From Bacteroidota bacterium (lineage in GTDB: Bacteria > Bacteroidota > Rhodothermia > JANXDC01): DNA of 64,000 nt. Location: contig JANXDC010000015.1 in the NCBI GenBank assembly GCA_025059945.1, positions 184,053 to 248,052 on the forward strand, written 5' to 3'. The position numbers and the translations under genes are program-made. Of the stretch, positions 44,439 to 64,000 are shown one piece after another (the first letter of the stretch is position 1; each line of letters begins with the position of its first letter). The notes under the pieces were generated by a model that worked only from the letters and a program-made list of their open reading frames with translations, was not told the DNA's origin and did no database searches.

Positions 44439-45206
44439 ATGTGGACTCGGATCGGCTTGGGATGCGCGCTCTGGCTTGCCGGATGCGAGACCCTATTGGT
44501 ATCCGATCTCGGGCGCGCCCCTGAGATCGTGCGCCTTTCGGTCAGCCCGCAGGAGGTGCTTCTGGATCCGCTGCCGCCGGGCCCAGACGGCCGCGTAACG
44601 GTCACGTTGCGCGTGGAGGCCGACATTCGCGATCCGGATGGCAACCTGCAGGACGTGCGGGTCTGGTGCCGCGATCCCTATCAGGAGGCCGTCTCGGCTG
44701 AGGCGGAGCTCACCCGGGTCGGCCAAGATCGCTACGCGGGGGAGCTCCTGTTGCGCCTGGCGCGCGGGGCCGTGGGCCAGTACACGGTCTACGCGCAAGC
44801 CCGGGATCGGCGCAACCGGGTTACGAACATCCCCCGCGTGGAGCTCTTGGTGCGGGCCACGGGCAGCCCGCCTCGAATTCTTGAGGTACGTGCGCCCTCG
44901 GAGGTGCGCATCCCCGCTCAGGGAAGCCGGTTTTTCGAGGTGGCCGCTTGGGTCGAAGATCCAGACGGGCCGGAGACGATCGCGCGTGTCTACCTGGTCA
45001 CCCCGACTGGACAGGAAATCGACCTCTACGACGATGGTCGGGTAAACGAAACAGGAGACCAACGCGCCGGAGACGGCCTCTATACGCGTCGGCTGTCCGT
45101 ATCGAGCGCCAACGCGCCGGGTCGGTACTCCTTTACGTTCTACGCCGTCGACCGGGCCGGTCTGCGCAGCGAACCCCGCTTGCACGTAATCGAGCTCATA
45201 CCATGA
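44439..45206 (+). CDS. hypothetical lipoprotein with Ig-like/beta-sandwich character
   Basis: Signal peptide with lipobox ...LWLAGCET. No catalytic motifs. ATGA overlap with the next gene. Confidence 0.45.
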   Translation: MWTRIGLGCALWLAGCETLLVSDLGRAPEIVRLSVSPQEVLLDPLPPGPDGRVTVTLRVEADIRDPDGNLQDVRVWCRDPYQEAVSAEAELTRVGQDRYAGELLLRLARGAVGQYTVYAQARDRRNRVTNIPRVELLVRATGSPPRILEVRAPSEVRIPAQGSRFFEVAAWVEDPDGPETIARVYLVTPTGQEIDLYDDGRVNETGDQRAGDGLYTRRLSVSSANAPGRYSFTFYAVDRAGLRSEPRLHVIELIP

Positions 45207-46726
45207 GGCGGCTGCTTGCGTTGTGTTTCGGGCTTTGGGGGGCCGCCTCGGCTTACGGGCAGGCCCCATCCCCAACGCGAGGCGGAGGGGATTCGCTTCT
45301 GGCCGGTATTACGCGCAACGCCGTTACGCATCTAGCCGTACAGGGTCCGGTGCTCTGGACAAGCCCCAAGCTCGCCTACACGGCCGACGGTGGGCGCAGC
45401 TGGAGGTTGGCCCGCGCCGATTCCCTGTACAACGGCCGCGGCACGGTCTACGCGCTGCACGTCGAGGGCGATACGATCTGGGCCTCTATCGGCTACAGCC
45501 GGCGCATGGAGCTGGGCGGCCGCGTTGAGTTCGTGCCCACGGCCATCGGTTTTGTCTACTCCGTAGACCGAGGGCGCAGCTGGACGTTTCGCCCTCCGCA
45601 GCTGGATGCGGCCACCGACACGGTCATCCTGTACGGCCGAAGCCGCATTCGAGCCGTGCCCGTGATCGCGCCCGAGCAGAGCGTGGTCTATGACCTGCAC
45701 TACCGGCACGGTCAGCTGTGGGTGGCCGGTTGGGCCTCGGGCATCCGGCGCTCCCGAGACATGGGGCGCACCTGGGAGCGCATCGTGCTTCCGCCGCAGG
45801 AGCTCAGCGCCATCCGGCCCGATGAGCCGTACGCGTTCGTGCTTGATCCGCGCCGGGACTTCAATTTTCTGGGCTTTTCCGTTTTCGTAGATCGGCGCGG
45901 CGTCGTCTGGGCCGGCACGGCCGGCGGCTTGCATCGCTCCGAAGACGGCGGTCGAAGCTGGCGCGCGATCCGGGCAAGCCGCGCCCCGGGCGCGCTGGCC
46001 GGAAATTGGATCATCGGCATCCACGAGCAGCCCCTTGGGGAGCAGAGCCGACTGTGGGCGATCACCTGGCCGGCGCAGTCCGAGGAGCACTTCGCTCTGT
46101 GTGTGAGCGCCGACGACGGCCGCACGTGGCGTTCCCTGCTGTGGGGCGAGCGCCTATACCAAGTCGCCTTTCAGGGAAGGCGCATCTGGGCGGCCGGGGC
46201 AAACGGGCTCTTTTATTCTGATGACGGGTTCAGCTGGCAACACATCCGACAGCCTGCGTTGCGCTCCGGAGGGGCTCTGCGGCCAGATTGGATCGCCTAC
46301 GCGGTGGCCGTTCAAGATTCGCTTCTCTGGGTGGGCACAAGCGACGGTCTGCTGCGTTCCGCAGACGGCGGGCGCACTTGGGATCTGTGGCGTGTAGAGG
46401 TCCCGCTGCGGCCGATGAACCCCGATCCCCGCATGCCCGAGGTGGAGACCTATGCCTACCCCAACCCCTTTGCCCCGCGCAGGGATGGCTGGTGTCGGAT
46501 CCGGTTCGCTTTATCCCGTTCTGGTCCCGTGACGGTGCGCATCTACGACTACGCCCTGAATCTCGTGGCCACCCTGCGACGGGCCGAACCGCTGCCGGCC
46601 GGCACGCACGAAGTGCCCTGGGACGGACAAGACGCCAAGGGCCGGCGCCTGGCCAACGGGGTGTACTTCTACGTGGTCGAGACCCCCTCTGGAACGTTCC
46701 GAGGCAAGATCCTGCTGCTGGAGTGA
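45203..46726 (+). CDS. BNR/Asp-box repeat protein (Ycf48/sialidase-like beta-propeller) with T9SS C-terminal sorting domain
   Basis: Signal peptide MRRLLALCFGLWGAASAYGQ. Seven or more BNR motifs (DGGRSW, DRGRSW, DMGRTW, DGGRSW, DDGRTW, DDGFSW, DGGRTW). C-terminal approximately 85 aa matches the T9SS type-A CTD (YPNPF...GVYFYVVET...). The listed ORF start at 44948 is over-extended. Confidence 0.7.
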   Translation: MRRLLALCFGLWGAASAYGQAPSPTRGGGDSLLAGITRNAVTHLAVQGPVLWTSPKLAYTADGGRSWRLARADSLYNGRGTVYALHVEGDTIWASIGYSRRMELGGRVEFVPTAIGFVYSVDRGRSWTFRPPQLDAATDTVILYGRSRIRAVPVIAPEQSVVYDLHYRHGQLWVAGWASGIRRSRDMGRTWERIVLPPQELSAIRPDEPYAFVLDPRRDFNFLGFSVFVDRRGVVWAGTAGGLHRSEDGGRSWRAIRASRAPGALAGNWIIGIHEQPLGEQSRLWAITWPAQSEEHFALCVSADDGRTWRSLLWGERLYQVAFQGRRIWAAGANGLFYSDDGFSWQHIRQPALRSGGALRPDWIAYAVAVQDSLLWVGTSDGLLRSADGGRTWDLWRVEVPLRPMNPDPRMPEVETYAYPNPFAPRRDGWCRIRFALSRSGPVTVRIYDYALNLVATLRRAEPLPAGTHEVPWDGQDAKGRRLANGVYFYVVETPSGTFRGKILLLE

Positions 46727-50615: not shown

Positions 50616-53252
50616 CTATTCGGGGAGGATCTCCACTTCGGCTTCCCGGGCGATGAGCGCAAAGCGTAGTCCGTCGGGGCCTCGATCGATGCGCACCACA
50701 TCGCCTGGGCGAAAGTCTCCGGCCAGCAGATGGCGGGCCAAGACGTTCGTCAGCTCCCGTTGCAGCACGCGCTTTAGCGGTCGGGCGCCGAAGACCGGAT
50801 CATAGCCGAGCTCGCCTAGCCAATCCTTGGCCGCATCCGTTAGCTCCAGCCGGATCCGGTTATGCTGCCAGGTCCATGCCTGAATGCGCCGGAACTGGAT
50901 CTCCACGATCCGACGGATCTTGTCGCGGCCTAGGGGACGAAAGACCACGATCTCGTCGATGCGGTTTAGGAATTCGGGACGCAGCTGTTGCTTGAGCAAG
51001 GCCATCAGCTGCTCGCGCAACTCCTCAAACTGGGCCTCACTCAGCTCGCCCCCCAGGCGCTCCATCTTCTGCAGGATCAAATGGGAGCCCAGGTTGGAGG
51101 TCATGATGATGATCGTGTTTTTAAAGTTCACCGTGCGGCCTTTGGCGTCCGTCAGGCGTCCATCGTCGAGCACCTGTAGCAGGACGTTGAAGACCTCCGG
51201 ATGGGCCTTTTCGATCTCATCGAAGAGCACGACCGAGTACGGCCGGCGCCGCACGGCCTCGGTCAGCTGACCCCCCTCCTCGTAGCCCACGTAGCCCGGG
51301 GGGGCGCCAATGAGGCGGCTTACGGTGTGGCGCTCTTGGTACTCGGACATGTCGATGCGGATCATGGCGTTTTCGTCGTTGAACAGAAACTCCGCCAGCG
51401 CCCGGGCTAGCTCCGTCTTGCCCACCCCGGTGGTGCCCAGAAAGATGAAGGAGCCGATGGGCCGATTCGGATCTTGCAGCCCGGCGCGGGCCCGCCGCAC
51501 GGCGTCCGATACGACCCGGATCGCCTCCTCTTGCCCCACCACGCGCTCCCGCAGGGCCTCCTCCATGCGCAGGAGCTTTTCGCGCTCGGATTCCAGCATG
51601 CGCTGCACGGGGATGCCGGTCCAGCGGGAGACGATCTCCGCGATGTCCTCGGCATCGACCTCCTCTTTCAGCATGGGGTGGTCTTGTTGCAGCTGGCGCA
51701 GTCGGGTTTGCGCCCCCTCTAGGGCGCGCGTCAGCTCCGGAATGCGGCCGTACTTGAGCTCGGCCGCCCGCCCGTAATCGCCTTCGCGCTCGGCGCGCTC
51801 GGCCTCGAACTTGGCCTCTTCGATGGCCTCTTTGAGCCGGCGGATCTCGCCGATGACCTCGCGCTCAGCCTGCCACTGGATGCGGAGCCGGTTGCGCTCC
51901 TCCTGCAGGTTGGCCAGTTTCTCCTCAATAGAGGCCAGCTTGCTGCTGTCCTTCTCACGCCGGATGGCCTCGCGTTCGATCTCCAGCTGCCGGATTTCGC
52001 GCTCGATCTGGTCCAACTTCTCCGGCATGGATTCCACCTCTAGGCGCAGCCGCGCGGCGGCCTCGTCGATCAGGTCGATCGCCTTATCGGGCAGAAAGCG
52101 ATCCGGAATGTAGCGCACCGATAGCTCCACGGCGGCCACGATGGCGGCGTCCGTGATGCGCACCCCGTGATGCGTTTCGTAGCGCTCCTTGAGGCCGCGC
52201 AGGATGGAGATGGCCTCCTCCGGGCTGGGCTCGTCAACCCAGACGGGTTGAAAGCGGCGCTCCAGGGCGGGGTCCTTCTCGATGTGCTTGCGGTACTCAT
52301 CAACCGTCGTGGCCCCGATCGTGCGCAGCTCCCCGCGCGCCAAGGGGGGCTTGAGGATGTTGGCCGCGTCCATAGCCCCCTCCGCCGCCCCGGCGCCCAC
52401 GACGGTGTGGATCTCGTCGATGAAAAGAATGATCTCGCCCTGCGAGTCGACGACCTCCTTTACGACGGCCTTGAGTCGCTCCTCGAACTCCCCTCGGTAC
52501 TTGGCGCCCGCGATGAGCGCCCCCATGTCCAGGGCCAGGATCCGCTTGGAGCGCAGGCTTTCGGGCACGTCCCCTTGCGCGATCCGGTGCGCGATGCCCT
52601 CCACGATAGCCGTCTTCCCGACGCCCGGCTCCCCGATGAGCACGGGGTTGTTTTTGGTGCGCCGAGACAGGATCTGCAACACCCGGCGGATCTCCTCATC
52701 GCGCCCGATTACGGGATCGAGCTTGCCCTTGCGGGCTAGCTCCGTTAGATCGCGCGCGTACTTTTTCAGGGCCTCATAGGTGGCCTCCGCTCCGGGATCC
52801 GTCACGCGCCGCCCGCCCCGAATGTCGCGCAGCGCAAGCAGGATGTTCTCCTTGCTCACGCGCAGCTGCCGCAGGGCCTGACCCAGGGCGTCCGGGCTTT
52901 CCGAAAGGGCCAGCAGCAGGTGCTCGGTAGCTACGTACTCATCACCCAGCGCCTGAGCTTCGCTTACAGCTTGGTCTAAAACGCGTTTAAGCTCAGCGCC
53001 CACGTAAGGACCTGAGATGGCCGCTCCGCTCACGCGGGGCAAGCGCTCCAGGGCCTGATTGAGCTTTTGCTCGAGCGCTTCGCGATTTACGTTGAGCCGA
53101 TCTAGGATGCCTTGGACCGGGCTTTCCGGATCCTCCAGCATCGCGCGCAGCAGATGCGCCGGTGCTAACTCCTGCTGCCCGCGGGTTTGGGCGATCTCGA
53201 CGGCGCGCTGGATCGCTTCCTGTGCCTTGTGGGTGAAGCGTTGCAGGTTCAT
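50616..53252 (-). CDS. clpB: ATP-dependent chaperone ClpB
   Basis: 878 aa with two AAA+ modules (Walker A GEPGVGKT and GTTGVGKT), a coiled-coil middle domain and an N-terminal Clp_N repeat. Confidence 0.95.
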
Positions 53253-53429
53253 AGGGCCTCTTTAATTCTCTTAAAGCAGTCTACCGGGCAGGCTGCGATT
53301 TCGATGCCGGAAGAGGGATATATGACATTTTGCGTGTTTAGGGTGGGCTTGAAAGACAAAACGACACCTTCAGGGTGGTCTCCTGCGCCACTCCACCCTC
53401 TTCGATCAAGACCGTAGAGGGGCTAAGGG

Positions 53430-53975
53430 CTAGTTGGTTCCGAACACGGCGGAGAGCGCAAACTGAGGCTTACGCAAGGGGGCGATCGTCGAGCTGCCCA
53501 GCGCGCCGAAGTACCCCAGACGCGCCTCCAGAAGCAGCCAGCGGCTTGGGGTTACGCCCAGGGCGAATTCCGGTACGAGGCAATAGAAACGTTCGTCGAG
53601 CTCGATCGTGCGCCCCGACTCCAAACGCAGCTCTCCGCCGCCGAGCAGCAGCTGAGCTCCTATCCGGACTAGGGGGGCTATAGGATAGCGGTAGCCCACC
53701 AGAAAGCCGCCGTAGTCAAAATGGGCTTTGCTAAGCGTACGCGATTTCCCGTAAAAACTAGCCGATCCGCTGCCGCCGCCGAAGTAAAAGTTGTTAAGAA
53801 AGAGCGCTCCCTGACCAAAGAACACAACCGGTTGTCCGTCGTAGGCCGGGTCGAGGTCGCGAAGCGTCCACACCGGGAAGACCGGACCGAAGCCCCCAAA
53901 TCCCCCGCGCCGTTGGGCTTCCGCCGCTTCCCATCCAAGCGCGAAAAGCAGAAGGCCAAGCAGTAAAGTTCGCAT
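53430..53975 (-). CDS. hypothetical secreted Gly-rich protein
   Basis: Start ATG 53975 (MRTLLLGLLLFALGWEAAEAQ, a signal peptide). The listed ORF start at 54128 is over-extended into the divergent promoter. No motifs recognised. Confidence 0.4.
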   Translation of the reverse strand: MRTLLLGLLLFALGWEAAEAQRRGGFGGFGPVFPVWTLRDLDPAYDGQPVVFFGQGALFLNNFYFGGGSGSASFYGKSRTLSKAHFDYGGFLVGYRYPIAPLVRIGAQLLLGGGELRLESGRTIELDERFYCLVPEFALGVTPSRWLLLEARLGYFGALGSSTIAPLRKPQFALSAVFGTN

Positions 53976-54057
53976 GCCCAAGCCCTCCTTAAAATGTAAG
54001 CGAACGCGTACGATTCCTACGCATGGCGGGGGAGAAAGTTGCGGGTTGCGCGCAGTG

Positions 54058-54068
54058 TAAAACGTTTC
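54058..54068. promoter_or_regulatory. LacI-type operator half-palindrome TAAAACGTTTC upstream of the oxidoreductase gene
   Basis: Contains the perfect palindrome AAACGTTT, 13 nt upstream of ATG 54081. Matches the 12-bp palindrome at the lacI promoter. Confidence 0.35.
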
Positions 54069-54080
54069 GAGATTTAAAAT

Positions 54081-55235
54081 ATGCGCATAGGCATAGCCGG
54101 ATACGGGGGTTTTGGTCAGTTTTTGCACGAGGCCTGGCGGGCGCTTGCGGAGGTCGAGGTGCTCGCCGTGGCCACGCTAAGCCCTCAGGGGCGGGACCTG
54201 GCGGTTGCCCGAGGTGTGCGGGCCTACTCGGATTGGCGTTCGCTGGTGCGGGATCCGGAAGTGGAACTCGTGGCTGTGGCGACGCCGCCGGATTTGCACG
54301 CGCCCGTAGCCTGCGCCGCGCTGCGCGCCGGAAAACCCGTGCTCGTGGAGAAGCCGCTAGCTGTAAACTTGTCCCAGGCGCGTCGGATCTTACGGGCGCG
54401 CGATTTGAGCGGGCTTCCGGCCGCGATCGATTATCCGCTGCGCTTTCATCCCCTCACGGAACGCCTTCACCGGTGGGCCCGCTCCGGCTTGTGGGGTCCG
54501 CTTCGGCGGATAGCGATCGAAAACTACGCCCAAGACGAGGCCTTGGGGCCTGAGCACTGGTTCTGGGATCTCCGTCGATCCGGCGGGATCCTGGTCGAGC
54601 ACGCTGTGCATTTTATCGATTTGGCCCAGGCGCTCGCCTCGGCCGCGCCGGTTCGAATCCGAGGGCTGGCCGCTGAGCGCGCCACAGGGGAGCGGGATCG
54701 CATGCTGCTGGAGGTGCTCTACGCCGACGGCATGATGATGACCCAATATCACGCCTTCGGCCGACCGGGGTTCTTTGAGCGCACCAGCTGGCGCTTCGTT
54801 TTCGACAGGTTGGAGCTCGAACTGGAGGGCTGGATCCCGCTTGTCGGGCGTCTGCGGGCTCTTGTGGATCCGATCGCGGAGCGGGAGCTATGCTCGCTGC
54901 CCAATTGGCAAGTGCTGCGGCGTTCATCCATAGCGGAGGCTGAAGATAACTCCCGTCCTCCAGGATGGGGCCAAGAGGGACTGGCCCGCAGAGACGCGCT
55001 CCACCGGCTGCGCGTGCACGGTCTTCCGTACGCGGCCGAAGCCCTGATAGAGGGAACTTTTGCCTTTCCGGAAAGCAAAGCCGAGCTTTACGCCCGCTGC
55101 GTGCAGGCCGCCCTGCTCGACCTTTTACAAGCCATGCGCATGCCCGGACATACCCTTCGGGCCCCGCTTGAGGTGGGGCTCGATAGCCTACACCTAGCCC
55201 TACAGGCCACCCGTTCCGCCCTGCAGGGCCCTTAA
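54081..55235 (+). CDS. Gfo/Idh/MocA-family NAD(P)-dependent oxidoreductase
   Basis: MRIGIAGYGGFGQ Rossmann N-terminus. EKP motif (VLVEKPLA) typical of the family. Confidence 0.7.
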   Translation: MRIGIAGYGGFGQFLHEAWRALAEVEVLAVATLSPQGRDLAVARGVRAYSDWRSLVRDPEVELVAVATPPDLHAPVACAALRAGKPVLVEKPLAVNLSQARRILRARDLSGLPAAIDYPLRFHPLTERLHRWARSGLWGPLRRIAIENYAQDEALGPEHWFWDLRRSGGILVEHAVHFIDLAQALASAAPVRIRGLAAERATGERDRMLLEVLYADGMMMTQYHAFGRPGFFERTSWRFVFDRLELELEGWIPLVGRLRALVDPIAERELCSLPNWQVLRRSSIAEAEDNSRPPGWGQEGLARRDALHRLRVHGLPYAAEALIEGTFAFPESKAELYARCVQAALLDLLQAMRMPGHTLRAPLEVGLDSLHLALQATRSALQGP

Positions 55236-55263
55236 CCCCCTTTTCTAGAGACGCCGAGGAGCC

Positions 55264-55309
55264 TTGACAAAGAGCCGGTGGCGTTATATATAGTGCCTAA
55301 AACGTTTTA
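55264..55309 (+). promoter_or_regulatory. sigma70-like promoter (TTGACA-N17-TATATA) with overlapping 12-bp perfect palindrome TAAAACGTTTTA (candidate LacI autoregulatory operator)
   Basis: TTGACA 55264-55269, TATATA 55287-55292, palindrome 55298-55309, ATG 55315. Confidence 0.5.
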
Positions 55310-55314
55310 ATGAA

Positions 55315-56349
55315 ATGCAAAAACGTCGTCCCACCATACGGGATGTGGCGGCTGAGGCGCGTGTTTCGGCCGCGACCGTATCGCTGGTCATGAGCGGCAA
55401 GGGCTATGTGCGGCCTGAGACGCGCGAACGTGTGCTGCGCGCAGCGCATCGGTTGGGCTATGTGCCCACACGGGCCGCGCAGGTCTTGGTGAGCCGCAAG
55501 ACGGGTAACGTGGGTTTTGTGCTGCGGGAGGACCACTTTACGCGAAGCGAACCCTTCTATACGCGCATCTTTCTGGGGGCTGAATTTGAGGCCCGTCAGC
55601 AGAACTACTACGTGCTGCTCACTACGATCCCGCGCACGTACGATCCGGAACGGCACGTGCCGCGTTTCCTGTTGGAGCGCAATGTAGATGGGGTGCTCAT
55701 CGCCGGCAAGGTCGACATAGCCTTTGTTGAACAGGTGGAGGCCGCGGGTCTGCCCTTGGTCTTGATCGACTTCGAAGTCGGGCAACGTCCGGCTGTGGTG
55801 ATCGATAACGTTGGGGGAGCCCGTGCCGCCGTGCAACACTTGTTTGCGCGGGGACACCGACGGGTGGCTTTTGTGGGCGCCGACATGAGCCATCCGAGCA
55901 TCGCCGGGCGCCTGGACGGCTACAGGTTAGCTTTTAGCGCAGCGGGTCTCGCCTTCGAGCCGGATTGGATCATCGCCGCCCCGGATCGAGAGCCCACTCG
56001 GGCTACGGGTTTAGAGCTTGGTCGGCGTTTGCTGGCTCTTCCGGAACGTCCAAGCGCGGTCTTTTGCGCCAACGATGCCTTGGCTCTGGGCGTGCTGGAT
56101 GCGGCCGAAGAGGCCGGTCTGCGGCTGCCTCAGGAGTTAGCTGTGGTGGGTTTTGACGACGTCGACGGGGCCGCTAGCGCCCGTCCGCCGCTGACGACCG
56201 TGCGGGTTTTCAAGGAGCAGCTGGGGGAACTGGCGCTGCGCTATTTGCTAGAGCTGCTTGAGGAAAAAGGAGCAAGCGCCCCCCGATACGCCCGTCGGCA
56301 GCATGCGATCTCGGTGCCGACTGAACTGGTGCTGCGGGCTACAAGCTGA
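55315..56349 (+). CDS. LacI-family transcriptional regulator
   Basis: N-terminal HTH (PTIRDVAAEARVSAATVSLVMSG) and a periplasmic-binding-protein-like sugar-binding domain. Confidence 0.85.
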   Translation: MQKRRPTIRDVAAEARVSAATVSLVMSGKGYVRPETRERVLRAAHRLGYVPTRAAQVLVSRKTGNVGFVLREDHFTRSEPFYTRIFLGAEFEARQQNYYVLLTTIPRTYDPERHVPRFLLERNVDGVLIAGKVDIAFVEQVEAAGLPLVLIDFEVGQRPAVVIDNVGGARAAVQHLFARGHRRVAFVGADMSHPSIAGRLDGYRLAFSAAGLAFEPDWIIAAPDREPTRATGLELGRRLLALPERPSAVFCANDALALGVLDAAEEAGLRLPQELAVVGFDDVDGAASARPPLTTVRVFKEQLGELALRYLLELLEEKGASAPRYARRQHAISVPTELVLRATS

Positions 56350-56420
56350 GCAGGCATCAAGCTGAAGGGATCGGTTTCCTTCAGCCAGCGCACAATAAAC
56401 TAAGCGGAGGAGGCCAGGTT

Positions 56421-59069
56421 ATGTGGAGGACGGTACAACCATGGCGTGGGCCCGCTTGGGGAGTCGTTGCATTTCTGCTGAGCGCCTCCTGGGCGCAAGC
56501 GCAGCAAGGTTGGGGTCATCTGTTGAGCCCGGAGTCTTCGTTTAATCTGCTCTCCAATGGCGGATTTGAGCTCGCCCGCCCCGCCTATTGGGAGCCCTCC
56601 GGGGCAGGGGCCACGTGGACGAGCGAGCGAGCCCGAACGCCGAACTATAGCCTCAAGCTCTCCGGCTCCGGGGCCGCCAGCTGGACGCAGCGGGAGGCCA
56701 TCCGGAACTGGACCCCTCGGTTCCCGGGCAACGCCGAGCTCGTGGTGGGCGGTTGGGTCTGGATGGAGAACGTCAATACGAACCCCACCACGGATGCGGG
56801 CAAGTTCCAGCTCGTCTTTGAGTTTTTTGACCGCCAGGGCCGAAACCTGCTCGGCGGCCCGTTGGTGATCGACTTGCCTCAACAGCAGCCCTCTACGGGC
56901 CGGTGGGTGCAAGTGAGCAACGAATCCATCGGGCCCCTGATTCTGCCGGGCGACGCTACGAGCGCCCGCATCACCTTCCGAAAGGGCGCTAGCGCTGTCG
57001 GGACCGCCTACCTGGATGACGTCTTCATCCGGGCCAGGGCCCAGAACGTCTGGCCGGGGGATATCTTCAACGCCAACATGGACGTGCCCGAGGGCTGGTA
57101 TTACTGGTGGAACAACTTCAGCGCGGGGCAATCCGACTGGCCGCAAAATCAGCCCTTCGTGGTGACCGCCACCACAGCAGGCATGCGCCGCGGATCGAGG
57201 GCTTTGCAGATGATCAAGCAGGATCAACCCGGGCAGACCGAGGCCGTGGCCATCTCGCAGCGAATGCCCGTCACGGTCGGAGAACCCTACTTGGTGAGCT
57301 TCTGGATGCGCTACGAGAACGTGGCCAACCCAGACCGGATCGGCACGCAAAACCACAACGTGGGTCTGACCGTCTTGTGGTACAACAACCTGCAGGGCGG
57401 CGCCGCCGGATGGGGCGAGATCGGTGGACTGGACATTCGGCTCAACGGCGACTACAACCCCATGGTCATCCCCTTGGCGCCCCGGCAGGCCTCGGCGGGA
57501 TGGACGCAATACGCCTTCGTCGTCTATCCTCGGGAGGGCGCCGTGGGCATGGAGATCCGCCTGCGCCAATGGCACGATTTCAAGGGAACCACGTACTGGG
57601 ACGACGTGGTGGTGGCCAAGGTCTCCGATGTCGTTGCGGCCCTACCCAATCTGCTCTCCAACGGCGGATTTGAGATCTTCCGTCCCGCTTACTGGGAGCC
57701 TTCTGGGGCCGGGGCCACCTGGACAAGCGAGCGCTACCGCACCCCGAACTATAGCCTCAAGCTCTCCGGCTCCGGGGCCGCCAGCTGGACGCAGCGGGAG
57801 GCCGTACGCAACTGGGTGGAGGGCATCCCCGGCTGGCGCAACCCGGAGATCGAGGTGGGCGGCTGGGTCTGGACGGAGAACGTCAATACGAACCCCACCA
57901 CGGATGCGGGCAAGTTCCAGCTCGTCTTTGAGTTTTTCGACGCTCAGGGGCGCGATGTGCTGGGTGGACCCGTGATTTTGGATGTTCCGCAGGCTCAGGC
58001 TTCCACCGGGGGGTGGGTGGAGATCTCCAGCCGCAGGCTCGGCCCGATCATATTCCCCGGCGAGAAGGCCGCGCGCAGAGCCCGCATCACGTTCCGTAAA
58101 GGGGCTAATGCGACCGGTACGGTCTATTTGGACGACGTTTTCATTCGTAAGGTCAACCCAAGCGTAGAAGGATGGCCCGGGGACTTTTTCAACGCCAACA
58201 TGGACGTGCCCGAGGGCTGGTACTACTGGTGGCTGGATTTCCCCTTGGGCAAGTCCGATTGGCCACAGAATCAGCCCTTCGTGGTGACCTTGAATGAGGC
58301 CGTAAAGTTTCAAGGTTCTTATAGCGTGCGCATGACCAAACGCGATCGGCCGGGTGCCTCCGAAGCTGTCGTGATCAGCCAGCGCGTGCCCATCACGCCC
58401 GGTCAACCCGTGTTGGTCAGCTACCGGTTGCGCCACGATGGGGTGCTCAACCCGGACTCGATCGGGCTCGGCAACTACAACGTGGGGCTGACCGCGCTCT
58501 GGTACACGAACCTGCAGGGCGGGGCCGCCGGATGGGGTGAGCGCGGCGGGGTAGACGTTCGGCTCAACGGCGACTACAACCCTATGGTCATCCCCCTGGC
58601 GCCCCGGCAGGCCTCAGCGGATTGGCGACATTACGCGATCGTCTTCTATCCGCCCGCGGATCCCCAGATCGTGGGCATGGAGCTGCGGCTTCGCCAATGG
58701 CACAACTTCTCCGGGACCACGTACTGGGATAACGTGGCGATCGTCCCCCTAGGTGGCGACCGGCTCTTTGTGTCCAACCAAGATCCGGTTCAGCTGGAGG
58801 TTCCGGAGCACCTGTACCTGCACCCGAATTACCCGAACCCGTTCCGGTTGGAGACGACGATCCGTTTCGAGCTGCCGCGCTCGGAATACGTGCGCCTGGA
58901 GGTTTACAACCTGCTCGGCCAGCGCGTGGCCGTACTCGTGGAAGGCCCCATGCCGACGGGTCGCCATGAGGTGCGTTTCCATGCCGGGGCGCTGCCAAGC
59001 GGCGTCTACCTGTACCGGCTGGAGGCTGGAGACCGGGTGGAGGTGCGCAAGATGACCCTCCTCAAATAA
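56421..59069 (+). CDS. secreted protein with two tandem about 368-aa units of CBM-like (CBM4/9/22-type, NGGFE) beta-sandwich domains and a T9SS C-terminal sorting domain
   Basis: RBS GGAGGAGG 7 nt upstream of the ATG. Signal peptide. Repeated NGGFE...YWEPSGAGATW motifs typical of carbohydrate-binding modules. C-terminal YPNPF...GVYLYRLEAGDRVEVRKMTLLK matches the T9SS type-A CTD. Confidence 0.65.
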   Translation: MWRTVQPWRGPAWGVVAFLLSASWAQAQQGWGHLLSPESSFNLLSNGGFELARPAYWEPSGAGATWTSERARTPNYSLKLSGSGAASWTQREAIRNWTPRFPGNAELVVGGWVWMENVNTNPTTDAGKFQLVFEFFDRQGRNLLGGPLVIDLPQQQPSTGRWVQVSNESIGPLILPGDATSARITFRKGASAVGTAYLDDVFIRARAQNVWPGDIFNANMDVPEGWYYWWNNFSAGQSDWPQNQPFVVTATTAGMRRGSRALQMIKQDQPGQTEAVAISQRMPVTVGEPYLVSFWMRYENVANPDRIGTQNHNVGLTVLWYNNLQGGAAGWGEIGGLDIRLNGDYNPMVIPLAPRQASAGWTQYAFVVYPREGAVGMEIRLRQWHDFKGTTYWDDVVVAKVSDVVAALPNLLSNGGFEIFRPAYWEPSGAGATWTSERYRTPNYSLKLSGSGAASWTQREAVRNWVEGIPGWRNPEIEVGGWVWTENVNTNPTTDAGKFQLVFEFFDAQGRDVLGGPVILDVPQAQASTGGWVEISSRRLGPIIFPGEKAARRARITFRKGANATGTVYLDDVFIRKVNPSVEGWPGDFFNANMDVPEGWYYWWLDFPLGKSDWPQNQPFVVTLNEAVKFQGSYSVRMTKRDRPGASEAVVISQRVPITPGQPVLVSYRLRHDGVLNPDSIGLGNYNVGLTALWYTNLQGGAAGWGERGGVDVRLNGDYNPMVIPLAPRQASADWRHYAIVFYPPADPQIVGMELRLRQWHNFSGTTYWDNVAIVPLGGDRLFVSNQDPVQLEVPEHLYLHPNYPNPFRLETTIRFELPRSEYVRLEVYNLLGQRVAVLVEGPMPTGRHEVRFHAGALPSGVYLYRLEAGDRVEVRKMTLLK
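56547..58754 (+). repeat. intragenic in-frame tandem duplication, 2 x 1,104 bp (368 codons)
   Basis: Near-identical nucleotide blocks (e.g. GAACTATAGCCTCAAGCTCTCCGGCTCCGGGGCCGCCAGCTGGACGCAGCGGGAGGCC at 56642 and 57746; GAGAACGTCAATACGAACCCCACCACGGATGCGGGCAAGTTCCAGCTCGTCTTTGAGTTTTT in both copies) are interspersed with diverged segments. Confidence 0.8.
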
Positions 59070-59131
59070 ATCCCCGTGGGCCGAGGTCCCTGACCGGCCT
59101 CGGCCCCTTCAAAAAGGCCGGCCTATAAGGG

Positions 59132-61792
59132 ATGCGTCGGAGTATGCGGGCGCTCGGATGGCTTGCTCTTGGCGGACTGCTTGCTTCGCCTGCCTGGGCG
59201 GGCACAACAGGCAAGATCGCCGGTCGCGTTACGGATGCGCGCACGGGCGAACCTCTGCCCGGGGTCAACGTGGTCATCGTGGGCACGCTGCAGGGCGCAG
59301 CTACGGACGCGGAGGGCTACTATACGATTCTAAACGTCAAGCCCGGCACCTACGCGGTGCGGGCCTCCTTTGTGGGTTATGCTCCGCAGACCGTCGAGAA
59401 CGTGCGGGTGCAGATCGACAAGACCACGATCGTGAACTTCGCTCTTCGTGAGGAGGCCGTGCAGACGCAAGAGGTCGTCATCACGGCCCAGCGACCCCTT
59501 GTGCAGCGGGATCTCACGGCCACGGCCACAGCCGTATCGGCTCAGGAGCTAGCCGTTTTGCCCGTGGAGAACTTTCAAGACGTGATCAACTTGCAGGCGG
59601 GCGTCGTAGAGGGCCGCTTCCGGGGGGGAAGGTTGGGGGAGGTGGCCTACATGGTCGACGGGATCCCAATCAACGATGTCTTTTCACGCAGTTTCGCCTT
59701 TCAGGTACAGAACAACGCCATTCAGGAGCTTGAGATCATCTCCGGCACCTTCAACGCCGAATACGGGCAGGCCATGTCGGGCGTGGTCAATATCGTCACC
59801 CGGGATGGAGGGGACCGATACGCGGGATCGGCAAGCGTCTACGTCGGTTCCTACGTAAGCCGGGAAGGGCAGCTTTTCCCACATCTTACTCCCATCCGGC
59901 CCAACCGAGCCCGAGAGTGGCAGGGGCTCTTTAGCGGCCCTGTTCCGGTCTTGGGCCGGCGTGCCGCGTTTTTCCTCTCCGGCCGTTACGCCTACAACGA
60001 GGGGCATTTGTTTGGGCGCCGCATCGTGCGGCCCGTAAGCTGGCGAGAAGGCGAAGGTACCTGGGTCGACGTGCAGGGCCGACGGGTTTTCGTGCCCGCT
60101 CTGGGCGATAGCGCCTGGGTTCCGATGAACTGGAGCGAACAGCTCACCTGGCAGGGCAAGCTCACGATCCGGCCTTGGGGCGGAAACCGGCTTTCGGTAA
60201 GTGGGCTTTGGCAACAAGACCGGGGCAAAGCCTACGATCACCTGTTCCGCTACAACCCCGACGGCTTGCCTACCCGCTACAGCACCGCCTGGTCGGCTAC
60301 GGCCACGTATACACACGTCTTTAGCCCGCGCGCCTTCGCCGAGCTTAAAGGGGCTCGCTTTCGCAACGAGCTCCGCTCCTACGTCTACGAAGACCCCTTA
60401 GATCCCCGCTACCCGCGGGATGACGCCCTGCGCCTGCTGGGCGGCAACTTCTCGTTTTACCGGGGCGGGGCGCGCATGCAGCATTTTCACCGCTACACGC
60501 AAACGTGGGTGCTGCGCGCCGACTTTACCGGTCAGCTTACGCGGCAGCATCAACTCAAGACGGGGCTTGAGTTTCGGGCTCATGAGCTTTACGTGCGGGA
60601 TTTCGAGGTCAAAAACAACCCCTCGACCGGCTTTAGGCCGGCCATTCCGCCCGTAAACACCCCGGATCACGTCCAGTATCGGCGCCGGCCCATCGAGTTT
60701 AGCGCCTACCTGCAGGACAAAATGGAGTTCGACTACTTGGTCGTCAACGCGGGCCTGCGCTTCGACTACTTCAACGCCCGAGGAGAGGTGCTGGAGGATT
60801 TCGGCCGGCCTCGGACTTCTCCTCGTCGGCCCTCTCGACCGAAATGGCAGCTTTCGCCCCGGCTGGGGCTGGCTTATCCCCTCTCGGAAGCCGGTGTGGT
60901 GCACCTGTCCTACGGGCACTTCTTCCAGATGCCCGCTTTCGAGTACCTCTATACGAACCCCGACTACATCTACGACCCCGAACGGGGGCTAAGTCGGGCC
61001 TTCGGATACGCCGATCTGGCCCCAGAGCAGACCGTGGCCTACGAGATCGGGCTGCAACAGGCCATAACCCCCGCGATCGGGCTCACCCTTACGGTGTACT
61101 ACAAGGACATCCGCAACCTGCTCGGCACCCGGCTAGAGGAGATCTCCCCCGGCTACGATGAGCCCTTTCCGTTATCCCGCTACGGCCGGTTTGTGAACCG
61201 GGACTACGGACAGGTCAAGGGCTTTTTGGCCTCTTTTGAGCGGCGTCACCTGGACGGCTGGGGGCTGAGCGTCGATTACACCTTCCAGATCGCCCGCGGC
61301 AACGCCAGCGATCCGCGTTCGGTGCTGATCAGCGAACAGGAGGGTGTAGAGCCGGAAAAGCAGCTTGTGCCCCTTGATTGGGACCGGCGCCATCAGCTGA
61401 ACCTGAGCCTGAGCTTAGGCAGACCGGATCGTTGGACCGTCACCCTGGTGGGCCGGTTGGGATCAGGTCTTCCGTACACCCCCTCGATCGCCGACGAACG
61501 CATCGCCGTTGAGAACTCAGCCCGTCGGCCCGGCACAAGCCAATTCGATCTGTTCGCGGCGCGCTACTTTCGAGCCGGCCCCTTTCAGTGGGGCGTCTTT
61601 GCGCGGATCTACAACCTATTCGACACCCGAAACGAAATCGGGGTCTACACGGACACAGGGCGGGCCTTTCCGAATCTGCGCTACTATTCCGGTGAGCCGC
61701 AGGGGCTGAATACCAAGGAGGAATTTCTGCGCAGGCCCGATTTTTACTCCCCGCCGCGGCTTGTGCAACTGGGTCTGCGGGTGGACTTTTAG
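59132..61792 (+). CDS. TonB-dependent outer-membrane receptor with N-terminal carboxypeptidase-regulatory-like domain
   Basis: Signal peptide, then a CarbopepD_reg-like domain (GKIAGRVTDARTGEPLPGVNVVIVGT...YTI), plug domain and a 22-strand barrel. C-terminal ...LGLRVDF. An alternative start is ATG 59144. Confidence 0.8.
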   Translation: MRRSMRALGWLALGGLLASPAWAGTTGKIAGRVTDARTGEPLPGVNVVIVGTLQGAATDAEGYYTILNVKPGTYAVRASFVGYAPQTVENVRVQIDKTTIVNFALREEAVQTQEVVITAQRPLVQRDLTATATAVSAQELAVLPVENFQDVINLQAGVVEGRFRGGRLGEVAYMVDGIPINDVFSRSFAFQVQNNAIQELEIISGTFNAEYGQAMSGVVNIVTRDGGDRYAGSASVYVGSYVSREGQLFPHLTPIRPNRAREWQGLFSGPVPVLGRRAAFFLSGRYAYNEGHLFGRRIVRPVSWREGEGTWVDVQGRRVFVPALGDSAWVPMNWSEQLTWQGKLTIRPWGGNRLSVSGLWQQDRGKAYDHLFRYNPDGLPTRYSTAWSATATYTHVFSPRAFAELKGARFRNELRSYVYEDPLDPRYPRDDALRLLGGNFSFYRGGARMQHFHRYTQTWVLRADFTGQLTRQHQLKTGLEFRAHELYVRDFEVKNNPSTGFRPAIPPVNTPDHVQYRRRPIEFSAYLQDKMEFDYLVVNAGLRFDYFNARGEVLEDFGRPRTSPRRPSRPKWQLSPRLGLAYPLSEAGVVHLSYGHFFQMPAFEYLYTNPDYIYDPERGLSRAFGYADLAPEQTVAYEIGLQQAITPAIGLTLTVYYKDIRNLLGTRLEEISPGYDEPFPLSRYGRFVNRDYGQVKGFLASFERRHLDGWGLSVDYTFQIARGNASDPRSVLISEQEGVEPEKQLVPLDWDRRHQLNLSLSLGRPDRWTVTLVGRLGSGLPYTPSIADERIAVENSARRPGTSQFDLFAARYFRAGPFQWGVFARIYNLFDTRNEIGVYTDTGRAFPNLRYYSGEPQGLNTKEEFLRRPDFYSPPRLVQLGLRVDF

Positions 61793-61811
61793 CGCAAGGA
61801 CCGGTGTCGCT

Positions 61812-63548
61812 ATGCGGCGTTGCTTGTGTCTACTTGGTCTGCTCCTAGTCGGCCTGCCGCTACGGGGCCAGGACCGGACCCCCCTGGCCTGGGTGGGATC
61901 TGAGGCGATCGATCGGCAGACGTTTTGGGAGCGCTACGAACAGAGCCTATGGATCGGCCGGGAGCGAGGCCGCCTGCAAGACGTCCCCAAGCATGGCTTT
62001 CTGTTGGCCCTGATCGCCGAGCGGCTGTTGGCCCAAGAAGGGGCTCAGATGAAGCTGGATCAGGCCCCTCCTGTGCGGACTTTGCTCGATGAGATCGAGC
62101 GCATGCTGCTTTTGGACGCGCTTTATCGTGTTGAGATCGGAGAGCCGGTCCAAGTGGCGGCTCGCGAGATAGAGGAAGCGGCTTGGCGGCGGCTACAGCC
62201 GGTTCACTTCGCCTATGTTGTCCTGGCTAGCTCCGAGCAGGCGGAGGCCGCTCGCGCGAGCTTGCTTCGGGCTTCGGATCCTATAGCGGCCTTCGACTCC
62301 CTGCAGCGCGCGCTCGGTCAAGAGGGGCAGCGGCGGATCGGGCGCTGGGGCGACTTCTATGAGCCTATAGAGCGCCAGCTGTACGAGGAGCTCAAGCCCT
62401 CCGAAGTGGGCCGTCCCATCGAGGTAGAAGGGCGTTTTTACCTGCTACAGCTTCGCGAGCGCCAGCGGCGCCCGTTTGTCCTGCCCGCGGATCTTGAACA
62501 AGCGCGCTACGAGACAGCCCGCATCCTGCGCATGCGGCGGGAGCGGGATCGGTTTTACGCGTTTTTATCGGCCTTCGGACAGGGCAAAACGGCCCAGGTC
62601 TCGCAGGAGCTGTTCGAACGCCTCTGTAGGGCGATCACCGAGCGGCTTGCGATCCGGGCGGAAAAGGCCCCTCCGGGACGGCCGTTGCGGCGTTTGGCCG
62701 CCGATTGGGCCGCGCTGCGCGCGGCTCTGCAGGACGCGCTTCCGGAGCCCTTCATCGAGGCCCCGAGCTGGAGGCGCTCTTTGGGCTACGTGCTGGACCG
62801 GCTTGCGCACCGGTCCTTTGCGGTTGTGCGGCTTGGTCCAACCGTCGCCCACCGGCTTCGGGGGGTTCTTTGGGAGCTGATCGCGGAGGAATTCCTGCTT
62901 GAAGAGGTCCGAGCGCGAGGCCTGGAGCAGCGGCCGGAGCTTAGGCGAGATCTGGAGCTGTGGCGCACCGCTTACCTAGCCTGGCGCCGGCAGCGGCTGT
63001 TTGCGGATTCCCTGCGGCAAGCCTGGTCGGATCTGGCCTACGGGGTCCGTCTTGTCCGCTGGGAGGCCGCATCCGAGCAAGCGGCCCGGTCCCTGCGTTC
63101 GGAGCTGGAACGGGGCCTCATCGTGCCGGCCGATACCACGGAGGAGCTGGCTCCGCTTCTTGCGGAACCCCTGCGGGCGCTCGTTGTGAGCTCGGAAATC
63201 GAGCAGATTCTGGGTCCGTTTCCGGAGCGGGGCCAGTGGGCGTTTTATCGCGTGTTGGCGCGTCGCAAGCTTAAGCCGGAAGAGCTTGAAAAGGCCGTGG
63301 AGCGAGCTCTGCAGGCGCATATCGCGCATCTGGCTCGACAAGCCGGGGTGCGCATCGATCTGCGGGCCCTAGAGGAGACCCCTGTCAGGACCGCCCACAA
63401 CTTGCTCGCTGTGCGCCTGCTGGGCTTTGGGTTTCGCCTTCTGAGCGCTCCGCCGGTGTATCCGCTTCTGGAGTGGTACGACCTCATGGACCGCGCTCGC
63501 CTGTACGCGGCGCGTCTTCTACCCGCTGCACAGGAGGAGGAGCAATGA
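61812..63548 (+). CDS. hypothetical periplasmic protein (possibly SurA-N-like chaperone fold)
   Basis: Start ATG 61812 (MRRCLCLLGLLLVGLPLRGQ, a signal peptide). Alpha-helical, Arg/Glu/Leu-rich, with no catalytic motif recognised. Confidence 0.4.
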   Translation: MRRCLCLLGLLLVGLPLRGQDRTPLAWVGSEAIDRQTFWERYEQSLWIGRERGRLQDVPKHGFLLALIAERLLAQEGAQMKLDQAPPVRTLLDEIERMLLLDALYRVEIGEPVQVAAREIEEAAWRRLQPVHFAYVVLASSEQAEAARASLLRASDPIAAFDSLQRALGQEGQRRIGRWGDFYEPIERQLYEELKPSEVGRPIEVEGRFYLLQLRERQRRPFVLPADLEQARYETARILRMRRERDRFYAFLSAFGQGKTAQVSQELFERLCRAITERLAIRAEKAPPGRPLRRLAADWAALRAALQDALPEPFIEAPSWRRSLGYVLDRLAHRSFAVVRLGPTVAHRLRGVLWELIAEEFLLEEVRARGLEQRPELRRDLELWRTAYLAWRRQRLFADSLRQAWSDLAYGVRLVRWEAASEQAARSLRSELERGLIVPADTTEELAPLLAEPLRALVVSSEIEQILGPFPERGQWAFYRVLARRKLKPEELEKAVERALQAHIAHLARQAGVRIDLRALEETPVRTAHNLLAVRLLGFGFRLLSAPPVYPLLEWYDLMDRARLYAARLLPAAQEEEQ

Positions 63549-64000
63549 GGCGCCCGGGTCTTCTGGGGCTGGCTCTTTTGGCGGGTTGGCTTTCCCTTGG
63601 CGTTCCCCCCGCGTGGGGGCAACGCAAACCCGATCCCAACAAGGGCGACAACAAGTGGACGCAGTGGGGGGTTCTGGACGGCAACCGGGTCCGTACGCTC
63701 TTCGCCAATCACGGCGAGGTGGCGCGTTGGCCCGATCAACCCTCCGGGGAATGGCCCAAGGGCAGCGGCCGGTCCTACGTAGACGGGGTGGCTGTGGTCG
63801 TCTCCGCCCGCACGCGCGACAGCCGGGGGCAGTGGATTTATCCCATGAGCACGAACTATCGGGAGTTCATCGACCGGGACCCCATCACGAAGGTGCCCTG
63901 GGGGTGGGCCCCACTGCCGGGTTATGCGAATCCGCGTCAGCCCTCCCCCGCCCGGTCTGATGATCCCGGCACCTGGCCCCCGTTTTGGCCGGATCGGCCT
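63545..64000 (+). CDS. hypothetical secreted protein (3' truncated by window end)
   Basis: ATG 63545 forms an ATGA overlap with the upstream stop. Signal peptide MRRPGLLGLALLAGWLSLGVPPAWGQ. Frame is open to the window end (152 codons) with coding-like GC3. Not in the ORF track because no stop is present. Confidence 0.4.
   Translation, partial: MRRPGLLGLALLAGWLSLGVPPAWGQRKPDPNKGDNKWTQWGVLDGNRVRTLFANHGEVARWPDQPSGEWPKGSGRSYVDGVAVVVSARTRDSRGQWIYPMSTNYREFIDRDPITKVPWGWAPLPGYANPRQPSPARSDDPGTWPPFWPDRP

Follow-up and report, generated by a model that had tools for sequence, protein, structure and literature searches.

The 64,000-nucleotide stretch of contig JANXDC010000015.1 analysed here, hereafter the window, carries towards its right end a lacI gene and two CG-centred palindromes, one just upstream of lacI and the other in front of an adjacent oxidoreductase gene. 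Our reading, to which we attach a probability of about three in four, is that a LacI-controlled operon for glycan utilisation in a Rhodothermia-like bacterium has its regulatory head in this part of the window, as comparison of sequences suggests. An ordinary sugar repressor of the LacI type very probably does bind both palindromes, and the regulatory part is well supported as an ordinary autoregulated LacI catabolic operon with an operator of the canonical type.

The regulator is a 344-aa LacI/GalR-family repressor encoded on the plus strand (55315..56349; PF00356, PF13377, PF00532). Its promoter (55264..55292, plus strand) is composed of a -35 box TTGACA (55264-55269), a 17-nt spacer and a -10 box TATATA (55287-55292). 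The operator O(lacI) follows (55294..55313, unstranded; TGCCTAAAACGTTTTAATGA), with the perfect 12-bp palindrome TAAAACGTTTTA as its core (55298-55309). The operator centre lies 11 nt past the -10 box and 11-12 nt ahead of the lacI ATG (55315), and the site overlaps the predicted lacI transcription start. A first-pass annotation, made from the letters of the window alone, had described a palindrome after a TTGACA-N17-TATATA promoter at lacI, and all these elements lie where it had placed them. A generic sigma-70 promoter scan of 53000-64000 called no site; it missed the lacI promoter because it requires a T at the last -10 position, which is here an A. A comparative promoter analysis was used in its place, revealing a TTGAC[A/T]-N16-18-TAnnnT layout upstream of the operator in orthologous loci.

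The second palindrome, O(gfo), is an operator-like site on the side of the Gfo/Idh/MocA-family oxidoreductase gene (54054..54073, unstranded; AGTGTAAAACGTTTCGAGAT), with the core TAAAACGTTTC at 54058-54068 and the 12-mer TAAAACGTTTCG at 54058-69. Both sites, CG-centred, stand out from the background. When up to two mismatches to the 12-mer were allowed, these were the only two sites in 64 kb (0.25 expected), and the same was true of the core AAACGTTT (0.34 expected). A 20-bp operator matrix built from orthologous lacI loci gave 16.5 bits for O(lacI) and 14.0 bits for O(gfo), the best two scores in the window. After shuffling of each intergenic region, the O(lacI) score was reached in 6 of 20000 trials and the O(gfo) score, within its 105-bp region, in 18 of 20000; single-base shuffles of the whole window now and then yield matches of 14-18 bits. 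The operator scan of the source genome covered the window plus 9 kb (~73 kb), and the other matches found there at thresholds of 8-9 bits were one of 9.6 bits at 24664 and one of 9.1 bits within the gene of the carbohydrate-binding-module (CBM)-like protein described below. The host, a Rhodothermia-like metagenome-assembled genome, is represented by three public assemblies. O(gfo) is identical in the other scanned assembly (L084), an identity of little weight given that the assemblies are 99.8-99.96% identical overall.

Evidence also comes from relatives. A one-genome-per-species scan gave 45 loci with LacI orthologues (43-65% identity), distributed among Rhodothermales, Balneolales/Cyclonatronaceae, Rubricoccaceae, Ignavibacteria and Calditrichia. 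In nearly all of them a CG-centred palindrome with the consensus TTATCGAAACGTTTCGATAA, or its variant AAGCGCTT, stands just upstream of lacI, scoring 12-35 bits (mostly 20-35) in about 40 of 43 orthologous loci. The spacing is conserved as well: in 30 of 40 loci a TTGAC[A/T]-N17-TAnnnT promoter has the operator centre 7-12 nt past its -10 box, the distance in the window being 11 nt. A matrix-independent test with the 12-mer of the first-pass annotation (two mismatches at most) showed a 114-fold enrichment within 150 nt upstream of lacI orthologues, 9 matches falling within these 6.3 kb, compared with 7 in 562 kb (p about 3e-14). Strong sites in the ~560 kb of relatives' flanks were found almost only beside the lacI orthologue or at cluster-associated genes.

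Judged from these loci, the family operator is the 20-bp palindrome TTATCGAAACGTTTCGATAA, of which the TAAAAC half-site is a lineage variant, also present in one half-site of several closer relatives (L002, L003, L007, L008, L009 and L015). O(gfo) is composed as a hybrid, joining the lineage half-site TAAAAC to the family-consensus half-site GTTTCGA, and the C that appears as a 'mismatch' in the oxidoreductase site (GTTTCGAG) is the family-consensus base.

Additional operator-like sequences were encountered in the relatives. In four Balneolales/Cyclonatronaceae loci (L018 at 2289, L021 at 10503, L023 at 10500, L024 at 5725), a conserved operator-like palindrome of 17-23 bits lies within the lacI coding region, ~560 bp downstream of the promoter operator, a position that recalls an auxiliary operator. 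Rubricoccaceae-type loci (L025-L041) carry a different second palindrome, (C)GGAAGCGCTTCC(G), adjacent to the main operator and, in certain loci, within the lacI-CBM gap (e.g. L029 at about 2385, the lacI-CBM gap of L041, L027 at 11063); this palindrome might be bound with lower affinity or belong to another factor. The distal operator of L085, a 68%-identical relative, forms part of a perfect 34-nt palindrome, GCGGCGGTCATCGAAACGCTTCGATGACCGCCGC (9840-9873), ~30 nt past the oxidoreductase stop, which could serve as hairpin and operator both. Finally, operators of 21-35 bits stand ahead of extra genes located between the oxidoreductase and lacI (L001 at 7303, L002 at 6616, L008 at 1386, L012 at 5716). 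These genes encode either an (alpha/alpha)6 glycosidase-like protein, with weak GDE_C/GH94/MGH1 matches, or a LamG_3 type IX secretion system (T9SS) protein; the same (alpha/alpha)6 type comes after the pair of genes of glycoside hydrolase family 130 (GH130) in L090.

The LacI protein is built as expected for its family, with an N-terminal helix-turn-helix (HTH_LacI, PF00356, 55.8 bits against a cut-off of 27, residues 7-51) and a periplasmic-binding-protein-like C-terminal effector domain (PF13377, 126.6 bits; PF00532, 85.5 bits). Its best NCBIfam matches (RbsR, CytR, PurR, GntR and CcpA) all fall under the equivalog cut-offs, and it is therefore not an orthologue of a named regulator. Among the candidates scored, 2948 homologues were retrieved at E<=1e-30; the closest non-identical ones among the matches listed are 50-68% identical, those with a name being Rhodothermia-type. 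The recognition helix reads VSAATVS in the window protein against VSISTVS in the family. The two residues before TVS, which correspond to Tyr17 and Gln18 of LacI, are Ile-Ser in most of the 43 orthologues and Met/Leu/Val-Ser in five. Proteins of these kinds, the VSISTVS ones included, pair with TCGAAAC or TCGAAGC half-sites, with a few partial exceptions (L032, L035, L042 and hybrid sites), the Ala-Ala of the window protein pairs with TAAAAC, and in three proteins from Calditrichia/Ignavibacteriaceae the second of the two residues is Ala and the half-site GTTAAAC. The proposal that the palindromes are LacI-type operators is thus supported by position and sequence in some 40 orthologous lacI loci, by the enrichment of the 12-mer and by co-variation of protein and DNA.

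Which LacI-family protein would occupy these sites can also be addressed. It is very improbable, in our view, that the palindromes are bound by another, paralogous factor, e.g. a global one. Such a factor could be accommodated by the sites themselves, since cores of the AAACGTTT type are common to many LacI-family operators, PurR boxes among them. The general rule for the family, even palindromes of 16-22 bp with a central CG (PMC4052901), is compatible with it too, and the Roseithermus genome has at least seven LacI paralogues (PMC7409140). However, the site follows the adjacent lacI across lineages at 43-68% protein identity, its half-site co-varies with the recognition residues, and strong sites in the relatives' flanks are nearly confined to this lacI and to cluster-associated genes. 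Because of this co-variation, together with the motif and autoregulation rules of the family, 72% of which autoregulates (PMC4052901), the adjacent LacI is the most likely binder.

The model that we infer covers binding, repression rather than activation, co-transcription, effector and substrate. The inducer-free LacI dimer would bind the 20-bp CG-centred palindrome over the start of its own sigma-70-type promoter and thereby shut off lacI and the eleven tightly packed genes behind it, and the hybrid site O(gfo) would probably bring the oxidoreductase under the same control in this lineage. An imported sugar, most likely a beta-manno-oligosaccharide or a product of one, would bind LacI, take it off the DNA and switch the operon on. 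At the cell surface, a T9SS-anchored, four-module CBM-like protein would capture the glycan, which a TonB-dependent receptor not of the SusC type would import, probably with a large secreted protein (G7) and a PorV/PorQ-family barrel; an ATP-binding cassette (ABC) system would then carry the oligosaccharide to the cytoplasm, where two GH130 enzymes would phosphorolyse it.

Repression is preferred because the operator position overlaps the transcription start. A published transcriptome of Roseithermus sacchariphilus RA bears on the point: lacI AWN76_013990 was up 2.49-fold, the permeases AWN76_014015 and 014025 were up, and the GH130 genes AWN76_014035 and 014055 rose 4.0- and 3.9-fold (PMC7409140). 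We regard AWN76_013990 as the lacI orthologue because its locus tag adjoins those of the CBM gene (AWN76_013995) and of G7 (AWN76_014005); the permease and GH130 genes follow no more than 13 locus tags downstream and are linked to the cluster by that position, not by sequence. The authors of that study labelled AWN76_013990 an activator, as its rise accompanies that of neighbouring glycoside hydrolases (PMC7409140). That LacI activates the cluster nevertheless seems to us hardly credible: an operator centred 7-12 nt downstream of the -10 box, as in 30 of 40 loci, is in a position to occlude RNA polymerase, joint induction of lacI and its targets would be expected of an autoregulated repressor at the head of its own operon, and most LacI-family factors bind DNA in the ligand-free state (PMC4052901).

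The extent of the putative operon was assessed from gene order. lacI is the first of 12 same-strand genes that span roughly 19 kb and reach ~9 kb past the window in the same genome: lacI, the CBM-like T9SS protein, the TonB receptor, a 578-aa protein, G7 (1093 aa), the PorV/PorQ-family barrel, an ABC binding protein, two permeases, a 476-aa YPO2471-like protein and two GH130 genes. Intergenic gaps range from -8 to +74 nt. The locus had been described as compact, which it is not; what the window shows is the front of a cluster extending to an ABC importer and two GH130 genes. No further operator was detected in the ~21 kb from lacI onward, the CBM and TonB receptor genes having none of their own; their membership in the regulon, as first proposed, would therefore come through co-transcription and not through dedicated sites.

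The lacI-CBM-TonB receptor-G7 order is kept in ~25 loci, and a PorV/Q-family gene follows G7 in all 19 assessable fetched loci, in the source genome and in L090, its place being taken in L089 by an unannotated 338-aa gene. The whole 11-12 gene cluster was found again in a marine contig, and an FCB-group contig holds the same cluster starting at the CBM gene, so that lacI is not assessable there. In two Rhodothermus metagenome-assembled genomes, lacI is followed directly by the binding protein, the two permeases and the YPO2471-like gene, with GH130 as well in L007, whose locus reaches far enough; the regulator is therefore tied primarily to the cytoplasmic pathway. A search of the relatives for operators upstream of the oxidoreductase and in the two gaps flanking the TonB receptor gene, towards CBM and towards G7, came back empty apart from L010 (described below), L019, with a site in its lacI-CBM gap, and L042, with one 6.6-bit match.

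Two inverted repeats had been taken for stem-loops separating cistrons. The first forms a 10-bp stem-loop (56361..56385, plus strand, containing CTGAAGG-N9-CCTTCAG at 56362-56384) in the 71-nt lacI-CBM gap; this gap folds to -22.2 kcal/mol (z = -2.1), the hairpin by itself reaching -14.6, and no U-tract comes after the stem-loop. The second, with 9-bp arms GGGCCGAGG/CCTCGGCCC (59078..59106, plus strand), lies in the CBM-TonB receptor gap and folds with z = -1.3, also without a U-tract. A terminator scan returned 16 matches for 9.5 expected and called neither repeat on the plus strand. A conserved terminator or attenuator after lacI was considered and rejected, as 33 relatives show variable hairpins (-5 to -20 kcal/mol) with no common sequence and no U-tract. 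Both repeats are present as described; given the missing U-tracts and conservation, their separating role is unproven.

These hairpins matter for another account of the locus, in which LacI controls only itself, possibly with the oxidoreductase: the hairpin at 56361-56385 would end the lacI transcript, and the downstream genes would have a separate promoter, either unregulated or under other control. The stability of the stem-loop right after the lacI stop speaks for it, as do the strong Shine-Dalgarno GGAGGAGG that the CBM gene has of its own, after the stem-loop, the 28-bit operator in the lacI-CBM gap of L019, which implies a promoter there, and weak GGAAGCGCTTCC-like palindromes in that gap in several Rubricoccaceae-type loci. 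We nevertheless find this account unlikely. The hairpin lacks a U-tract and those of the relatives are not conserved, inspection of the 71-nt gap by eye shows no -35/-10 pair and the generic scan was empty, gaps are small all along the cluster, synteny between lacI and the cluster holds across several FCB-group lineages, and the lacI, permease and GH130 genes of Roseithermus are induced together. A single operon headed by lacI remains our preferred reading.

What this operon would serve is indicated by its distal genes. The two GH130 genes lie past the window (18767-20877 in L084). Their products match PF04041 with 192.5 and 101.2 bits and come closest to two characterised enzymes, beta-1,2-mannobiose phosphorylase and 1,2-beta-oligomannan phosphorylase (PDB 7fip, 1e-62; 9fj8, 3e-59); the 476-aa cluster protein is similar to the uncharacterised YPO2471 (7tem, 3e-69). 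The first-pass annotation had left the substrate open, which is no longer wholly so: on GH130 similarity, our best guess is a beta-mannoside.

Several observations weigh against the reading proposed here and are gathered at this point. The lacI promoter had been called 'textbook', which overstates the case: its -10 box agrees with TATAAT at only four of the six positions, the final T being absent, although the layout is conserved in orthologous loci. Relatives usually carry two operators, and in the 15 loci where these are well separated the second is found 81-153 bp upstream of the first, in the stretch that separates the oxidoreductase from lacI. The hairpin after lacI could attenuate read-through, leaving the downstream genes to an unrecognised promoter. 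With NF052550, the GH130 proteins score 266 and 131 bits for an equivalog cut-off of 450, so that beta-1,2 specificity is not established, and the induction in Roseithermus came on beechwood xylan, not on mannan (PMC7409140). Lastly, regulon size in the source genome is read within the scanned ~73 kb only.

The place of the oxidoreductase in the regulon is less secure than that of lacI, and we give it a little better than even odds. This gene (54081..55235, plus strand) encodes a 384-aa Gfo/Idh/MocA-family NAD(P) oxidoreductase (PF01408, PF22725) whose NCBIfam equivalog matches are all far under their cut-offs and whose PDB relatives are sugar and inositol dehydrogenases. O(gfo) is the near copy of the palindrome that had been noted upstream of it; it is indeed present, with its core 12 nt, not 13, before the ATG at 54081 and its centre 17 nt upstream of that ATG. 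Alternatively, O(gfo) could be a chance match or a relic, and the oxidoreductase a mere genomic neighbour outside the regulon, which we hold to be a distinctly less probable, if serious, explanation. In its favour, no operator of 5 bits or more was found directly upstream of the oxidoreductase orthologue in ~12 scannable loci except L010, where the match falls in a shared divergent intergenic region, and the closer relative L085 has none directly upstream either. Furthermore, no convincing sigma-70 promoter was found upstream of the window gene (best 7/12), and the whole-window shuffles sometimes reach comparable scores. On the other side stand the rarity of 14 bits in shuffles of the 105-bp region, the rank of O(gfo) as the second-best site of 64 kb, right beside the regulator, its composition from a family-consensus right half and a lineage-variant left half, and the presence of an oxidoreductase homologue at most about 5 kb upstream of lacI in ~16 related loci; its identity in L084 says little, for the reason given above. 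The comparison with relatives suggested by the first-pass annotation thus came out positive for lacI and negative for the oxidoreductase, whose assignment to the regulon is supported by the site in the window and not by sites in orthologous positions.

On the other side of O(gfo), the minus strand encodes, divergently from the oxidoreductase, a small protein rich in glycine and putatively of the outer membrane, to which no family could be matched (53430-53975). O(gfo) lies ~80-100 nt upstream of its start, and control of this gene from the site is conceivable in principle; the gene is not kept beside the cluster in relatives.

We further gained insight into the outer-membrane proteins. The identities given at first to the genes of the window (Gfo/Idh/MocA, LacI with HTH and Peripla_BP_3, CBM_4_9 with Por_Secre_tail, and TonB receptor) were all recovered with Pfam/NCBIfam. 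The CBM-like protein (882 aa; 56421..59069, plus strand) is a T9SS type-A cargo with a signal peptide, four CBM4/9/16/22-like jelly-rolls and a Por_Secre_tail C-terminal domain (CTD). PF02018 (CBM_4_9) matches the whole protein with 40.6 bits (cut-off 25.9), single modules being weak (E = 0.002-0.02), and the sorting domain is recognised by TIGR04183 (37.1 bits, cut-off 23) and, on the isolated C-terminus, by PF18962 (33.9 bits). Its AlphaFold model (pLDDT 88, pTM 0.79) shows four beta-jelly-rolls and the sorting domain, with no catalytic domain. Foldseek linked it with probability 1.0 to a CBM22 tandem and CBM16 (TM 0.68), and also to the B. thetaiotaomicron surface glycan-binding protein SGBP-B, and a sequence search against PDB gave nothing significant. 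The gene contains a ~1.1-kb two-module unit in tandem (56544-57609 versus 57648-58737) with 75-88% nucleotide identity, which marks the protein as the product of a recent tandem duplication; relatives, Rhodothermus marinus included, have a single unit (~510 aa), and others three (~1180 aa).

The TonB-dependent receptor (59132..61792, plus strand; start at 59144 and 882 aa in the public annotation) has a CarboxypepD_reg N-terminus, a plug and a barrel (Pfam). Its score with TIGR04056 is 76.6 bits, from the N-terminus only, for a cut-off of 368; neither gene after it matches SusD, and no SusD family occurs in the precomputed Pfam annotation of the cluster. Membership in a SusC/SusD polysaccharide-utilisation locus (PUL) was rejected on these grounds. 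The first-pass annotation had already noted a receptor without SusD partner; it had identified this receptor and the CBM protein correctly, and the two are syntenic with lacI in the ~25 loci. Orthologues behind the CBM gene are 57-71% identical in Rhodothermia-type loci and 43-46% in Ignavibacteria and Calditrichia. The next gene, for a 578-aa secreted protein with just a sub-threshold PPIC-rotamase (SurA-like) match (61812..63548, plus strand), separates the TonB receptor from G7 as an insertion specific to this lineage; none of the 45 related loci has it.

G7 begins in the window (5' end at 63545..64000, plus strand) and goes on past it (10001-13282 in L084). Of its 3918 homologues at E<=1e-10, the best 120 are 50-72% identical, the named sources among these 120 being Rhodothermia, Balneolaceae, Latescibacterota, Fidelibacterota/Marinimicrobia and Ignavibacteriales, and G7 stands directly behind the TonB receptor in every related locus checked. 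Pfam gave no match on the G7 of the source genome and just a sub-threshold FlgD_ig match (E = 0.02-0.05) on two orthologues. A profile search against PDB sequences returned one marginal PorU match, NCBIfam weak PorU/PorZ CTD matches under the cut-offs, and Foldseek with the whole model mostly generic FN3/Ig arrays. The C-terminal domain resembles the CTDs of PorZ, PorU and mirolase, and the proposition set out below takes G7 to have a beta-sandwich domain of the carbohydrate-enzyme type besides this PorZ/PorU-like C-terminus. The neighbouring barrel (13291-14325 in L084, past the window) belongs to the PorV/PorQ family (NF033709, 202.5 bits, cut-off 90) and reaches the cut-off with none of the equivalog models for PorV, PorQ and PorV2. 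By analogy, G7 may dock on this barrel beside the transporter. No paralogous TonB receptor/G7 pair was found elsewhere in the window; just a CTD-level match occurs at 44948-46726, in a BNR/sortilin-like T9SS protein whose FlgD_ig-type C-terminal domain is 29% identical to the last 100 residues of G7.

Taken together, the products of four genes behind lacI, namely the T9SS-anchored tandem-CBM protein, the TonB receptor outside the SusC class, G7 and a PorV/PorQ-family barrel dedicated to it, could form a SusD-independent glycan-import apparatus conserved across the FCB superphylum, in which the PorV/Q paralogue would be a permanent dock holding G7 by the transporter and LacI would be the regulator of the apparatus; we advance this whole proposition tentatively, and it is more doubtful than the operon itself. 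If these proteins do cooperate, they would represent a second architecture for TonB-dependent glycan capture in Bacteroidota-related phyla, and the LacI operator would offer an easy induction handle in cultivable relatives such as Roseithermus and Rhodothermus. The literature searched yielded no description of the module of G7, PorV/Q barrel and TonB receptor, nor of this LacI regulon, no regulon reconstruction for Rhodothermales or related FCB groups, and no account of the regulator of this orthologous group (Rhodothermales and other FCB lineages) or of its motif TTATCGAAACGTTTCGATAA. The practical value of the analysis lies in the operator motif and in the link between regulator and targets that it provides for Rhodothermales and related FCB lineages. 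The larger point is that the targets of the repressor would be a widely conserved SusD-less cluster for glycan import across the outer membrane, probably of a beta-mannoside.

Compared with the local LacI/GalR regulons surveyed by Ravcheev et al. (2014; PMC4052901), with E. coli PurR, GalR, RbsR and CytR as prototypes, the system has the same domain pair, an even 20-bp CG-centred operator, probable autoregulation and clustering with sugar transport and catabolic genes. It differs in the short distance of 11-17 nt between operator centre and start codon, over 75% of the family sites being located 30-140 nt upstream (PMC4052901), in that the regulator is the first gene of its own putative operon, and in that components of the outer membrane and of T9SS are among the putative targets.

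In layout, the described system that comes nearest is the Rhodothermus marinus xylan locus Rmar_1067-1081 (PMC6987092). It also has a LacI-family regulator at its head, a cell-attached CBM4-containing T9SS-type protein, a TonB receptor without adjacent SusD and 'hypothetical' cell-attached proteins. In contrast with the present cluster, its enzymes are of the GH10, GH43, GH67 and GH3 families, it includes a SusC/SusD pair with an extracytoplasmic function (ECF) sigma/anti-sigma pair, and no operator was described. On the cytoplasmic side, the beta-1,2-mannoside cluster of Thermoanaerobacter sp. X-514 (Teth514_1785-1796; PMC4264767) likewise combines an ABC importer with two GH130 genes, although its Gram-positive host has no outer-membrane module and it carries in addition GH5, a guanylyltransferase and GT4.

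At the surface, the comparison is with the secretion machinery. PorZ-PorQ and PorU-PorV are T9SS attachment pairs of Porphyromonas gingivalis, with the structures 5m11 and 6za2. The weak CTD matches of G7 and the neighbouring PorV/PorQ-family barrel mirror this arrangement of a CTD protein docked on a barrel, but G7 is not a PorZ/PorU orthologue, and the G7-barrel pair sits in a putative catabolic operon beside a TonB receptor. With the SusC/SusD PULs and their surface glycan-binding proteins, finally, the cluster would share its logic, i.e. surface capture, TonB-dependent import and co-regulated catabolism. It differs from them in having no SusD, a receptor outside the SusC/RagA class and T9SS CTDs instead of lipoprotein anchors, and in relying on a LacI-type regulator where those loci use a hybrid two-component system, SusR or an ECF sigma factor.

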